Part shown: positions 5,863-44,742 of the stretch, piece by piece
Numbering within the stretch: position 1 is the first letter of the stretch
How the letters are laid out: the number at the start of each line of letters is the position of its first letter
Source of the DNA: Candidatus Nomurabacteria bacterium
GTDB lineage: Bacteria; Patescibacteriota; Minisyncoccia; Phycocordibacterales; UBA9973
DNA: 64,000 nt
Reading direction: 5' to 3'
NCBI GenBank assembly: GCA_023898605.1
Contig: CP060230.1
Coordinates: forward strand, 131,944 to 195,943
Position numbers and translations under genes: made by a program
The notes under the pieces: generated by a model
The model's input: only the letters and a program-made list of their open reading frames with translations
The model's database searches: none
Told to the model about the DNA's origin: nothing

Positions 5863-7356
5863 TTAAATTAATTCTTTCAATAATTCTTGTACAAGTGCTG
5901 GATTTGCACTACCAGCAGTTTCCTTCATAACTTTTCCTACAAGTGACATAAGAGCATTTTCCTTTCCACCCTTATATGTTTCTACAACATCTTGGTTTTC
6001 AGAAATTACTTTTTCTACAATAGCCTTGAGTGCTTCTGGATCATTTTTCTGTATAAGACCTTTTTCTTCTGCAAAAGTAGCTGGGTCTAGGTCACTTTTT
6101 GTCATTTCTATAAGTATGTCTTTTGTACTTCTAGAAGAAAGAGAGCCATCTTTGAACATCTTTATAAGAGAGGAGAAACTTTTATCGTTTGGTATTTTTG
6201 CTTCAGGATCTTTTGCCAAAGTACCGACAAGATCAGAAGTTATAAAGTTTGAAGCTGTTTTTATGAGCTCTTTGTCAGAATCAAAATCAGCTATAACTTT
6301 CTCGAAGAACTCTCCGAGACTTAGATTATTTATATAACTTTCTATATCTTCGTCTTTTATACCAAACTCGTTTCTATATCTATTTCTCTTTTCTTCTGGT
6401 AATTCTGGAAGATTTTTTTCTATTTCTTTTATATCGAAAAGAGTATGAAGTTTGAATTTGGGAATATCTGGTTCTGGGAAATATCTGTAATCAGACGCAT
6501 TTTCTTTGCTTCTTTGAGAGAAGGTTTTTCCTTTGTTTTCGTCCCAGCCACGAGTTTCCTGCCTTATTTCTCCATCTCTTAGCATTGTATGTAGCTCTTC
6601 CATTCTGTCGAATTCGTACAAAACTGCTCTTTCCATGCTCTTGAATGAGTTTAGATTTTTGACCTCTACTTTTGTACCTAGAACAGATTGGAATTTATCC
6701 AAATCTGTTCGGCCGATCAATCCTTCGGATTGATTTAGGCCTTCAAGTTCGAGTTTCTTTGAGCTAGTTATAGATATGTTTGCTTCAACTCTCATCTCGC
6801 CTTTTTCCATGTTTGCTTCAGATACACCCAAATACCACAGTAGTAGTTGTAGATCTCTTGCAAACTTTCCTGCTACTCTTATCGCCTCGTCTTTATCATC
6901 GAAGGTATGAGGTTCTGTAACTAGCTCCATAAGCGGCACGCCAGCCCTGTTTAGATCAACTAGAGTTTTTTCGTCACCATGTTTTGACGTACCTGTATCT
7001 TCTTCTAGGTGTATTCTTGTTATGTCGAAACCAGACAGGTGTCCTCCTGAAACTATAGGGTATTTGTACTGGCTTATCTGATAACCTTTTGGTATGTCTG
7101 GATAAAAATAGTTTTTTCTATCAAATTCAGTAAAGTCTGCAATATTTCCTCCTATTGCAAGACCAACCTTTATAACATTTTTTATCGCCTCTTCATTTGG
7201 AACAGGCAGAGTTCCTGGTTGAGCGCTACACACAGGACATATGTTTCTGTTGGGTTTTTGTTCATCTGGGTCATTCTTACAAGAACAAAACATCTTTGTT
7301 TTAGTAGAAAGTTCCGCGTGGACCTCTAGTCCAATTGTGTAATAAAATTTCTCCAT
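5863..7356 (-). CDS. gatB: Asp-tRNA(Asn)/Glu-tRNA(Gln) amidotransferase subunit B
   Basis: N-terminal YYTIGLEVHAELSTKTKMFCSC...CPVCSAQPGTLPV; 497 aa. Confidence 0.95.
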   Translation of the reverse strand: MEKFYYTIGLEVHAELSTKTKMFCSCKNDPDEQKPNRNICPVCSAQPGTLPVPNEEAIKNVIKVGLAIGGNIADFTEFDRKNYFYPDIPKGYQISQYKYPIVSGGHLSGFDITRIHLEEDTGTSKHGDEKTLVDLNRAGVPLMELVTEPHTFDDKDEAIRVAGKFARDLQLLLWYLGVSEANMEKGEMRVEANISITSSKKLELEGLNQSEGLIGRTDLDKFQSVLGTKVEVKNLNSFKSMERAVLYEFDRMEELHTMLRDGEIRQETRGWDENKGKTFSQRSKENASDYRYFPEPDIPKFKLHTLFDIKEIEKNLPELPEEKRNRYRNEFGIKDEDIESYINNLSLGEFFEKVIADFDSDKELIKTASNFITSDLVGTLAKDPEAKIPNDKSFSSLIKMFKDGSLSSRSTKDILIEMTKSDLDPATFAEEKGLIQKNDPEALKAIVEKVISENQDVVETYKGGKENALMSLVGKVMKETAGSANPALVQELLKELI

Positions 7357-7405
7357 AATTTATAAGGCTATCATAGCAAAAAACCTAGATTTTCTCCAGC
7401 GGGCC

Positions 7406-8341
7406 TTATACCTTATAAAGTAAGAAATTTATGATGTCCAAAGAGTCTATAAACCTACCCTCTTTTGTCGATCCTAGTATGACTGCTATGTATTCTTCTA
7501 GTGGACCTGTCTCAAAGGCTATTATCAAGTTGCCACCAGCAAGGTTTGTAAGTCCGGTTTTTGAGAAAAGTAGCGACGGATATTTTTCTGTTATGTAGTT
7601 TGTATTTTTGAAAACAAGGTTAGGCTTCCCTATTGGCCCAACTGATATTGTCGGCTGGCTTGTTTTGTATATATAGTCGCTTATTTTAATGAGAGAATAT
7701 TTTGCGAGTTTTACCATATCTAGAGCTGTAGAATATGCTCCTGGAAAAACCGAACTCTCATCTAGTCCAGTTTCGTTGAAAAATACCGTATGCTCCATGC
7801 CTATCTCTGCTGCTCTCTGATTCATGATAGCTACAAAAGACTCATCTTCTCCCAAATGATATTCTTCCGATGTCCTACGGAGTGCGTGAGCTATATCGTT
7901 AGAAGAAGTCACAAGAAGTAGCGATATCAAGTCTTCCTTCTTCCACAAGTCTCCAGCGACAAGTCCGTGATCATCCGGCATGGCTAGGTCTTCGTATGTT
8001 ATCTGAATAGGAGCTCCGTCTGGAATTATTTCGTCTGCGACTATCGCGGTCATAAGTTTCTGTAGAGAAGCAACTGGTCTTTTTTCTTCCTCATTTTTTG
8101 AATAAACGATACAGTCGTCACTTTTGTTGTATATAACAAAACTTTCTGCCAGAAGATTTAGTTCAGCTTCTTCTTTGCAATATTTTACCTCTACAGGGTC
8201 TTCTTTGTTTATGATTGTTAGTGGTGTACCGGTAAGATTACTTTTTGTGACATTTGCAACCACGGTCGAAACACCCAACACAAATATGATCAATATACAC
8301 ACCAAAAATATCTTGATGTTTTTTGGGTTATTATTCTCCAT
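7406..8341 (-). CDS. D-alanyl-D-alanine carboxypeptidase (PBP5/S11 family)
   Basis: SxxK (ASLQKLMTA), SxN (SSND) and KTG (SKTGLT) motifs; N-terminal TM anchor. Confidence 0.8.
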   Translation of the reverse strand: MENNNPKNIKIFLVCILIIFVLGVSTVVANVTKSNLTGTPLTIINKEDPVEVKYCKEEAELNLLAESFVIYNKSDDCIVYSKNEEEKRPVASLQKLMTAIVADEIIPDGAPIQITYEDLAMPDDHGLVAGDLWKKEDLISLLLVTSSNDIAHALRRTSEEYHLGEDESFVAIMNQRAAEIGMEHTVFFNETGLDESSVFPGAYSTALDMVKLAKYSLIKISDYIYKTSQPTISVGPIGKPNLVFKNTNYITEKYPSLLFSKTGLTNLAGGNLIIAFETGPLEEYIAVILGSTKEGRFIDSLDIINFLLYKV

Positions 8342-11100: not shown

Positions 11101-11148
11101 TATAACATTTTTATAGCTAAAAGGTAGCCCAGATTTTTGTAATAAAAA

Positions 11149-11180
11149 AGCCTTGAGTTTAAAATTCTAAACTCAAGGCT
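11149..11180. terminator. Intrinsic terminator hairpin (agccttgagttt-aaaattct-aaactcaaggct) with flanking A/T runs
   Basis: Perfect 12-bp stem; on the minus strand it is followed by a T-run, downstream of the 11193..12017 gene. Confidence 0.7.
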
Positions 11181-11192
11181 TTTGATCGTTTC

Positions 11193-12017
11193 TTACAATT
11201 TACGAGCAGACGAGATGCCGAGGTTACCAAGATGGCTGCCCTCCCAGTAGTATCTGATGTTGAGACCGTCCCTGTCGAAGCGACCGACGTCGACGCGGTC
11301 GCTGTATGTAGAAACGGAACTGGTCCTGACGTACTTGTTGGAGCGAAGCAGGTAGATGCCACGCACCTTGTAGTAGGCAGTGACAGCATAGCTGACTTCG
11401 ACGGCATTCGGAACGTATTCATCCTCGCTCAAGAGGTCTTGCTGCTCGCTCCACGTCTTGCTGAAAGAGTTCGGGACTGCTTCCTTCCTGATTGCGAGCC
11501 ACTCGCCAGCGGACACCTTATCCTCACGAGAGAACTTCTGCTTGTCCTCGGCGTACCACCCTTTGGTCTTGAAGGAGAACAGCTTGTTTTCGAGCTCCCG
11601 AACTTCGAGGAGGTTCATCTCCGTCGGCGGTTCCGCGATGAGCATATATCCGTTGGCACGAAGCCAGAGGATGGCCTCCATACCAGGCAGGGTGTCAGCG
11701 AAGTGTTCCAACTGCTCGTCGGTGTAGCTCACGCCGTAGGCGGTTGCCACTTCCTGGGCGCTGATGTAATCGTCGCCGAGAATGAGAAGTGCCAGTTCGT
11801 GACCTTCGGGGAAGCAGGTTTGTATCACCTCGCCGTTGTCTCCCAACTTGGGACAGCCCCGGCGCAGGTACTCGGCGAGATTTCGCCGTGCTACCGGGTT
11901 GTTGGTCGGATGTTGCCAGTGGGACCAATCAATGCCTTCCTTTTCGGTGAGACGAATGAGTTTTGCCATTGTTCCAAGGGTCCTGCTTGGATCTGGATTA
12001 AGATGCGATTTTGACAT
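11193..12017 (-). CDS. Hypothetical protein encoded on a ~55% GC island (foreign composition)
   Basis: 274-aa ORF (MSKSHLNPDPSRTLGT...). GC is much higher than the ~33% flanks and long ORFs open on both strands. An AT-rich promoter-like region lies upstream (12018-12127) and a terminator downstream. No family recognised. Confidence 0.5.
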   Translation of the reverse strand: MSKSHLNPDPSRTLGTMAKLIRLTEKEGIDWSHWQHPTNNPVARRNLAEYLRRGCPKLGDNGEVIQTCFPEGHELALLILGDDYISAQEVATAYGVSYTDEQLEHFADTLPGMEAILWLRANGYMLIAEPPTEMNLLEVRELENKLFSFKTKGWYAEDKQKFSREDKVSAGEWLAIRKEAVPNSFSKTWSEQQDLLSEDEYVPNAVEVSYAVTAYYKVRGIYLLRSNKYVRTSSVSTYSDRVDVGRFDRDGLNIRYYWEGSHLGNLGISSARKL

Positions 12018-12127
12018 CGGATGTTAATTTATAAGTGAACAAAAATAAAATCATGTTATTTTTAACACACAATTAAATTATTGTAAATATCTTAACAAAA
12101 AAGAAGAATTAGTAAGGTGGCATAAAA

Positions 12128-12167
12128 AAGGTAACACCAAACTACGATCGTAGTTTGGTGTTACCTT
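12128..12167. terminator. Perfect 40-nt palindromic hairpin (aaggtaacaccaaactacga|tcgtagtttggtgttacctt), trpS terminator
   Basis: Perfect palindrome 25 nt downstream of the trpS stop, followed on the minus strand by a T-run. Confidence 0.75.
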
Positions 12168-12191: not shown

Positions 12192-13139
12192 TTAGTCTAG
12201 TTTTACTCCTACTCTCTTTCTAACCTCTTCCATTTTTTGAGAAGCTATTTGTTTTGCTTTTTCGCCACCTTTTTTTAGTATTTCTAGAACTTCTTCTTTG
12301 TTATTCTCAAAATATTTCCTTCTTTCTCTCATCGGTGCAACGAAGTTTTCTATATCTTCAAAAAGTGCTTCTTTTAGGTCTTTATACTTCCCTTTCTTTT
12401 CTTCGTATAGATTTTTGAGATAATCTTCGTCTCTAAACAGTTTGTGTATAGCGTAAACATTTTCTGGAACCCCTTCTCCCGAGTCTGTAACTATCCCCAT
12501 AACAGCTTTCTTGATTTCTTCTGTTTCGGCAAAAAGCGGAATAGTGTTTTTGTAGCTTTTGCTCATTTTCTGACCATCTGTCCCTGGAACAGTTTGGACA
12601 CTTTCTACAATCATAGGTTCTGGTAGTTTAAATGTTTCTCCAAATATTCTATTGAATTTTTCTCCAGTGTCTCTTGTAATTTCTATGTGTTGTTTTTGGT
12701 CTTGTCCAACTGGAACTATTTCTGAGTCGTAAAGCAAAATATCAGAAGCCATAAGCATCGGGTAGTTAAATGTTCCTACAGATATCTCTTTGTTTTTTGC
12801 TTCAGCGTCTTTGAAAGCGTGTGCTCTCATGAGATAAGGCATAGTTGTCATGGTATCAAATATCCACGCAGCCTCTGTGTGCTCTGAAACGCTTGATTGT
12901 TGGAATATGACAGACTTTTCTGGATCAAGTCCTATTGCAAGATAATCCATCGCCAGATCTATTATGTTGGAATTCATCTCTTCTTTGTCTTGTATGAAGT
13001 TTAGAGCGTGATAGTCAGCAATCATAAAAAGACTTTCGTATTTTTCTTGATATTCGACAAATTGTCTCATTGCCCCAAAATAGTTTCCGATATGAGGTCT
13101 TCCTGTTGGTTTTACCCCAGATAAAAGTCTCTTTTTCAT
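12192..13139 (-). CDS. trpS: Tryptophan--tRNA ligase
   Basis: N-terminal SGVKPTGRPHIGNYFGA (HIGH) and KMSKS (QKMSKSYKN) motifs; 315 aa. Confidence 0.95.
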   Translation of the reverse strand: MKKRLLSGVKPTGRPHIGNYFGAMRQFVEYQEKYESLFMIADYHALNFIQDKEEMNSNIIDLAMDYLAIGLDPEKSVIFQQSSVSEHTEAAWIFDTMTTMPYLMRAHAFKDAEAKNKEISVGTFNYPMLMASDILLYDSEIVPVGQDQKQHIEITRDTGEKFNRIFGETFKLPEPMIVESVQTVPGTDGQKMSKSYKNTIPLFAETEEIKKAVMGIVTDSGEGVPENVYAIHKLFRDEDYLKNLYEEKKGKYKDLKEALFEDIENFVAPMRERRKYFENNKEEVLEILKKGGEKAKQIASQKMEEVRKRVGVKLD

Positions 13140-44669: not shown

Positions 44670-44742
44670 TGGGCGACATAAGAATCGAACTTATGACCTC
44701 TGTCTTATCAGGACAGCGTTCTACCACTGAACTAGTCGCCCA
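44670..44742 (-). tRNA. tRNA-Ile (anticodon GAU)
   Basis: Reverse complement folds as GGGCGAC-TA-GTTCAGTGGTAGAAC-GC-TGTCC/CTGATAA/GGACA..., T-arm GTTCGATTC, acceptor GTCGCCC + A. The anticodon loop CTGATAA gives GAT. No encoded CCA. Confidence 0.85.

Follow-up and report, generated by a model that had tools for sequence, protein, structure and literature searches.

A GC-rich, strain-variable gene between trpS and aspS of a Candidatus Nomurabacteria bacterium is probably an orphan copy of a diversity-generating retroelement target

On contig CP060230.1 of a Candidatus Nomurabacteria bacterium (GenBank assembly GCA_023898605.1), a single minus-strand gene of 274 codons (11193..12017) stands between aspS and trpS as a sharp island of high GC content. 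What does this gene encode, and how did it come to be there? We examined it in a 64,000-nucleotide stretch of the forward strand (contig positions 131,944 to 195,943), called the window here, to which coordinates refer unless another locus is named; loci fetched for comparison carry L numbers. The initial annotation described an unrecognisable protein of unknown function. We conclude that the gene is probably a solitary orphan copy of the variable-protein gene of a diversity-generating retroelement (DGR), frozen and under relaxed constraint, that was gained recently as a 972-nt cassette.

The protein proved recognisable through its family, which is that of Patescibacteria DGR variable proteins. 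A first search recovered 141 homologues at E <= 1e-3 from Patescibacteria metagenomes and metagenome-assembled genomes, with 50-76% identity over 95-100% of the length; among them was the NCBI record of this same gene (H6791_00735, Candidatus Nomurabacteria). An exhaustive profile search extended the family to 2180 cluster representatives at E <= 1e-3. The family is found only in Patescibacteria and has no Pfam model. The protein matched nothing in Pfam or PHROGs, Pfam searches of 43 aligned members gave scattered chance matches with no model (e.g. FGE-sulfatase) fitting any of them, longer members added only incidental fusions, and the family profile found nothing significant among PDB sequences. 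Judged by family and genomic context, the island protein can now be classified and is no longer an ORFan.

The context that matters is that of the relatives. About 500 nt downstream of the gene, L004 and L006 repeat its final 114-120 nt at 86% identity, and bAvd (PF22296) and a reverse transcriptase (RT; RVT_1) come directly after this repeat. L001 has the same repeat at 91% identity, with the RT about 4 kb further on. Mismatches between this template repeat (TR) and the variable repeat (VR) at the end of the gene fall at TR adenines in 16 of 17 cases at L004, 15 of 16 at L006 and 9 of 10 at L001, and further loci carry TR copies with the same bias (e.g. 25/25 at L147 and 19/19 at L178). The positions that vary correspond to AAC-type codons in the TR, and in DGR-linked relatives the end of the repeat is marked by a difference of the IMH/IMH* type (initiation of mutagenic homing). 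Adenine-specific TR/VR differences in company with Avd and RT identify a DGR target family, so that in these relatives, as read from their sequences, the gene is the variable-protein gene of a DGR. Downstream sequence of at least 2.5 kb was available for 35 family loci; a TR, Avd or RT (RT and Avd sought by tblastn) is present in 19 of them and absent from 16. A DGR clade restricted to Patescibacteria has been described (clade 2; Roux et al. 2021, PMC8144416).

In such relatives, a transcript of the TR about 500 nt downstream would serve as template for an Avd-RT complex, which misincorporates bases at random at adenines, and the mutated cDNA would then replace the VR (mutagenic retrohoming). 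The protein diversified in this way would combine a variable helical N-terminus of about 70 residues with a core of about 205 residues, the last ~40 of which would form the ligand-binding surface. In the window copy the N-terminal module comprises ~69 residues (11811..12017, minus strand). It varies between subfamilies, with three N-terminal types in the family alignment, and was modelled with less confidence than the core: the full-length AF2 model has a pLDDT of 84.5, with 48-76 over residues 1-70. The conserved core (residues ~70-274; 11193..11816, minus strand), modelled alone with AlphaFold, reached a pLDDT of 94.7 and a pTM of 0.92, and many family members match profile positions ~70-272 only. 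The core likely has an FGE-type C-type-lectin (CLec) fold, a predicted rather than demonstrated one. Of the 31 top Foldseek matches of the core in the PDB, we take 30 to be FGE/CLec-fold proteins, among them SenA, EgtB, FGE, pFGE and the DGR protein TvpA (2y3c); CarF, PorK and Bd2740, as well as PvdO at rank 36, are presumably of this fold too, with less certainty. Foldseek found no significant match for the full-length model in the PDB or BFVD, and no signal peptide or membrane anchor was evident by eye in the protein.

The window copy carries what looks like the imprint of this process. Its VR-homologous stretch, the last ~40 residues (11201..11314, minus strand), can be aligned gap-free with the TRs of 17 relatives and differs from the nearest of these (L132) at 13 of 28 TR-adenine positions and at 14 of 86 other positions; this enrichment at TR adenines points to past adenine mutagenesis. 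Compared with the closest relative, L216, dN/dS is 1.35 in the VR stretch and 0.52 in the rest of the gene. An IMH-like sequence at 11198..11213 on the minus strand, read from sequence comparisons, matches at 14 of 16 bases. The machinery itself was sought in the 64 kb of the window, out of a contig of 619 kb. Blastn and tblastn searches with VR, RT and Avd found no TR, Avd or RT there, and the window holds neither a second copy of any part of the gene nor a cognate TR matching the VR. Among the best 120 of more than 7771 RT relatives, the source contig did not appear, which is a weak negative.

Homology to the DGR-linked relatives is also limited to the gene, running from 6-7 nt before the ATG through the stop codon. 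Past the stop, where those relatives have a conserved set of hairpins, the window copy shares nothing with them, and their Shine-Dalgarno sequence (AAGGAAGG) and conserved leader have been lost. The leader and trailer of the insert match nothing within the window or in the other fetched loci. The window copy would thus keep a footprint of retrohoming while lacking the machinery, the conserved 5' leader and the 3' hairpins.

The flanks that the gene does have are its own. Upstream lies an AT-rich leader (12018..12121, minus strand; GC 0.22) that is part of the insert and has no Shine-Dalgarno sequence. The initial annotation called this region promoter-like; its AT-richness stands, and the promoter comes down to one weak -35/-10-like match at 12087-12058, no better than in shuffled sequence. 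Downstream, the hairpin proposed as a terminator is real: it begins 12 nt past the stop, and its perfect 12-bp G+C core (11149-11180) extends to 16 pairs over 11146..11183 on the minus strand, with a folding energy of -22.2 kcal/mol and T6 next on that strand. It has no homology with the post-VR hairpins of the relatives and is likely the intrinsic terminator of the gene, completed by a T-run that the recipient site supplies. The 40-nt palindrome at 12128..12167 (minus strand), read earlier as the trpS terminator at the edge of the island, indeed sits immediately 3' of trpS, with a T-run after it on the minus strand; this palindrome is outside the insert and present in strains with an empty site.

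The leader that DGR-linked relatives share is about 110 nt long and is conserved at L001, L004 (~7890-8000), L006 (~760-868), L128, L129, L131, L132 and L135. Its motifs follow the order …GAGATGAGCATTTTG…TTGGTATTTGAAATGTTCGTCTCAT…GTTAGGGCGAACCTAAC…AAGGAAGGCAxCCGATG, with two apparent hairpins and the Shine-Dalgarno sequence; L216 retains a truncated form, and the window copy lacks it altogether. The leader is perhaps a regulatory RNA element. Rfam assigned no family to the leader, the TR or the hairpins. Two loci, L133 and L134, stand out: Avd begins 49 nt past the stop codon of the target (gene end 4199, Avd from 4248), and an ungapped search found no TR between the two. There the TR may have another location, or these loci may be organised differently. 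At L006, downstream of the DGR, a LOOT RNA (RF03000, 72 bits) lies at 8144-8268 near a DNA methyltransferase/ResIII gene pair.

How the gene reached its place can be read from conspecific assemblies, which we reached through proteins identical or nearly identical to the window TrpS. In six of them, L208 (GCA_020428735.1) and L209-L213, the site is empty and trpS is followed directly by aspS. Blastn aligns their flanks to the window at 98.4-99.7% identity (99.3-99.7% over ~4.9 kb per side where contigs are long enough), and the alignment breaks exactly at window positions 12122 and 11149. The inserted segment is therefore 972 nt long (11150..12121), consists of leader, coding sequence and hairpin, and replaces ~14 nt (CTATTTTGCTATGG) of the empty site. 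Read directly, both junctions lie within T-runs, with no target-site duplication beyond T5 and no terminal inverted repeat. The insert contains no mobility gene and encodes the 274-aa protein only.

Five further assemblies (L221-L225) have the filled site, with an identical 274-aa protein adjoining aspS. L224 and L225 match the window DNA at 100% and L221-L223 at 99.9-99.98%, and the sequences of L221-L224 continue past the trpS-side junction into the terminator palindrome. Samples ERZ27309389 and ERZ27309384 hold both alleles, so the polymorphism segregates in natural populations. Absence from six conspecific assemblies and presence in five argue for a recent single-gene gain and not for an assembly error. 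The synteny comparison thus agrees with the horizontal gain of one gene between aspS and trpS that the initial annotation had proposed. We suppose that the cassette took the place of the ~14 nt that separate the trpS terminator from the aspS promoter, and did so since the species arose; illegitimate or microhomology-mediated recombination at the T-runs would be the most likely route. The palindrome beside the polymorphic site breaks assembly graphs: several independent assemblies (L219, L220 and L221-L224) end inside it, and bases 1-91 of L224 are a fold-back duplication at this point.

Is the copy still active? Six assemblies from at least five samples encode one and the same protein, including its VR, and no variation between samples was found at the adenine-templated VR positions in these six consensus sequences; there is accordingly no sign of ongoing diversification at the consensus level. 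Outside the VR, dN/dS on the window branch is 0.63, compared with 0.2-0.3 in DGR-linked pairs, and 14 positions at which the six nearest relatives all agree carry another residue. Polarised changes on the window branch number 26 GC-to-AT against 17 AT-to-GC; the sister orphan L216 has 13 against 4, and DGR-linked copies are balanced. The gene would now encode one frozen binding specificity and drift, with a dN/dS of ~0.63 and a mild excess of GC-to-AT changes.

The same observations could describe a copy further gone, a functionless pseudogene in waiting that decays and is poorly or not transcribed. Such a state would account for the raised ratio, the replaced residues and the GC-to-AT excess, and also for the lost Shine-Dalgarno sequence and leader and for a promoter-like match that is weak at best. 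We consider it unlikely. The 825 nt of the frame are free of frameshifts and premature stops, dN/dS has not reached 1, six assemblies carry the identical gene, and the sister orphan L216 has an intact frame too, with a ratio of 0.65.

Several points weigh against a frozen, recently gained target. Consensus assemblies cannot show minority VR variants. The direction of the change is inferred from parsimony. The CLec assignment rests on Foldseek matches of the core model in the PDB, none of which reaches E <= 1e-3 (best E = 0.035). The intact 274-aa frame, the IMH-like 3' end with its 14 of 16 matches and the stable hairpin 12 nt past the stop would also fit a live remote target, and because 64 kb of the 619-kb contig was searched, there is room for a DGR acting in trans from afar. 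Such a DGR, elsewhere in the 619-kb genome, would provide TR RNA and Avd-RT in trans and still diversify 11201-11314, the post-stop hairpin serving as a cruciform homing element. Targets of this kind are known and escape contig-based surveys (PMC8144416), and the 16 of 35 family loci without an adjacent DGR would be in keeping with them. We nevertheless find a serviced target rather improbable: the VR does not vary among the six assemblies, the conserved post-VR flank of DGR-linked relatives is missing, the gene is dispensable, as the empty-site strains show, and dN/dS outside the VR is raised. The absence of the source contig among the best 120 RT relatives adds a little to this.

A third possibility is that the gene is an old resident of the locus, ancestral there and deleted in the other strains. 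Presence/absence polymorphism alone has no direction, and Patescibacteria genomes are streamlined and deletion-prone. The empty allele, with 14 nt that the filled allele lacks, is unlikely to be the product of a simple deletion. In the genus-level relative L215 (TrpS 77% identical), a gene for a 595-aa ABC-type ATPase (5957-7744) lies between trpS and aspS and no family member is found there, so that this spacer appears to be a recurrent site of gene gain. The initial annotation would have counted the same high-GC gene at the same locus in relatives against a recent arrival; the gene is indeed shared, at other loci. The closest relative, L216 (76% identity in amino acids; 84% in nucleotides by codon alignment, 86% in the blastn match), stands alone as a GC island at an unrelated locus, and its homology to the window gene ends at the stop codon; other orphan members sit among housekeeping genes at still other places. 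Taken together, these observations make an ancestral gene lost by deletion very improbable. As for an assembly chimera, with DNA of a GC-rich organism joined into an AT-rich contig, the sharp GC steps and the many family members on 1-2 kb contigs might suggest one, but it has next to no chance of being right and is refuted by the junctions: five independent assemblies (L221-L225) repeat the gene-aspS junction at 99.9-100%, four (L221-L224) span the trpS side, and other family members lie inside Patescibacteria contigs of up to 447 kb.

The preferred reading, a stranded DGR target, leaves the base composition to be explained. The jump over 11193-12017 is as sharp as first described. GC content is 0.552 over the gene, compared with a mean of 0.365 in the other 825-nt windows (n = 2453, s.d. 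0.026, maximum 0.446; z = 7.2), and the island bin alone exceeds 0.41 among the 1-kb bins of the 64 kb. A 200-nt profile steps from 0.34 to 0.55 at one end of the reading frame and back to 0.28-0.35 at the other. Codon usage differs accordingly: GC at the three codon positions is 0.56, 0.41 and 0.69, with third-position GC (GC3) of 0.30-0.32 in aspS, trpS, dnaB and scpA. The contrast with the neighbours is mostly synonymous, and codon preference is reversed, with CTC in place of CTA, AAG in place of AAA, and GGC, GCC and ACC in place of GGA, GCA and ACA.

The initial annotation took this high GC content as a signal of recent acquisition, and here it was misled. In 70 of 70 family loci the gene is GC-richer than its flanks, by a median of 0.14 (range 0.04 to 0.24) at flank GC contents of 0.29-0.57, and no locus among the 70 has surroundings as GC-rich as the gene. 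Within the same cassettes, target GC3 is 0.62-0.72 and Avd/RT GC3 is 0.27-0.34. High GC in every family locus is therefore no sign of recency or of a GC-rich donor, and the window copy would simply have inherited it from its family. Unameliorated donor DNA was rejected as the cause, as GC-richness is kept in AT-rich hosts between members with saturated synonymous sites (dS above 1.3) and no equally GC-rich flanks were found. Adenine depletion by off-target mutagenesis was rejected as well, as T3 is as depleted as A3 and C3 dominates. A second, unrelated DGR target at L001, of 253 aa (11352-12113; VR 11983-12108, TR 12383-12508), has a GC content of 0.54 and a GC3 of 0.65, compared with 0.285 for the RT and 0.36-0.46 for host genes, so GC-rich targets may be general in this DGR clade.

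In cassette pairs among L004, L006, L129, L132, L134, L136 and L141, target and RT diverge in a decoupled manner, which suggests recombination in the target module or a mutation regime of its own there: target dS in distant pairs (0.4-0.6) amounts to roughly half the RT value (0.8-1.1), and in close pairs to 2-4 times the RT value (L004/L141: RT 0.024, target 0.096-0.11). It is a doubtful idea, put forward tentatively, that a process tied to the retroelement keeps targets GC-rich over their full length (GC3 0.6-0.77, C3 ~0.45) whatever the host and in the direction opposite to Avd/RT. Candidates for such a process may include synonymous-site selection for homing or expression, biased conversion, or a target-plus-TR module circulating apart from the RT backbone. 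The bare coding sequence may also be relocatable on its own, given that the homology between the window copy and L216 stops at the stop codon and that their 5' ends are cut differently, like those of 5'-truncated retrocopies. The GC split between targets and Avd/RT is not mentioned in the DGR surveys PMC5758913, PMC8144416 and PMC11661182. Wu et al. reported that ~20% of DGRs deviate by at least 5% from host GC, which they read as horizontal transfer.

Two points concern the gene model. N-terminal conservation places the start at the ATG at 12017; the annotated start is 16 codons further in. Long frames are open on both strands, as stated at the outset, the other being an antisense frame of 260 codons (11232..12014, plus strand). 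The minus-strand frame was rightly taken as the gene, since it is the one with homologues and a conserved N-terminus. The antisense frame is broken in relatives after, for example, 193, 160, 188, 112 and 136 codons, and such interruption at varying positions marks it as a shadow ORF, codon-aligned with the coding sequence. With the frames in register, it stays open only since TTA and CTA do not occur in the gene and TCA occurs once.

A scan of viral contigs returned one distant homologue, of the C-terminal domain only, which gives no evidence of phage carriage. This relative is a 183-aa ORF (5986-6537) on L218 (IMGVR_UViG_3300038829_000053), matching residues 132-274 at 38% identity. Elsewhere in the 64 kb, the sole Rfam match at gathering score is a tRNA at 44670-44741 on the minus strand.

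The gene can be set beside three kinds of known system. With CLec-fold DGR proteins such as Treponema denticola TvpA (2y3c) and with the clade 2 DGRs of Patescibacteria, its relatives have in common a 3'-terminal VR, a TR differing at adenines, adjacent Avd and RT and the IMH/IMH*-type difference at the repeat end, and the best structural neighbours of the window core are FGE/CLec folds including TvpA, at a similarity below significance; unlike these systems, the window copy lacks the conserved flanks, and no TR, Avd or RT accompanies it in the 64 kb. It resembles the remote or orphan DGR targets of Legionella, Treponema and others in being a VR-bearing gene without DGR components nearby, but differs from them in that it is a 972-nt insertion present in some strains only, its flanks are foreign and its VR does not vary, which points to a stranded copy rather than a serviced remote target. 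Finally, it is like single-gene genomic islets in its atypical composition, presence/absence within a species, insertion next to a terminator and lack of mobility genes. Here the difference is that the atypical composition is common to all family members in all hosts; it contrasts with the family's own cassette partners and so is no reflection of a donor genome.

For genome scans, the lesson is that a sharp GC island alone is no evidence of recent arrival or of a GC-rich donor. The split between GC-rich targets and AT-rich Avd and RT could indicate a previously undescribed constraint on DGR targets. As far as comparative sequence analysis can carry the assignment, an ORFan of an uncultivated ultra-small bacterium would become a member of an identifiable class, a ligand-binding protein shaped by hypermutation and then stranded. 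The locus offers a clean natural case of presence and absence of a DGR target within one species, useful for understanding the role of binding proteins in episymbiotic Patescibacteria.

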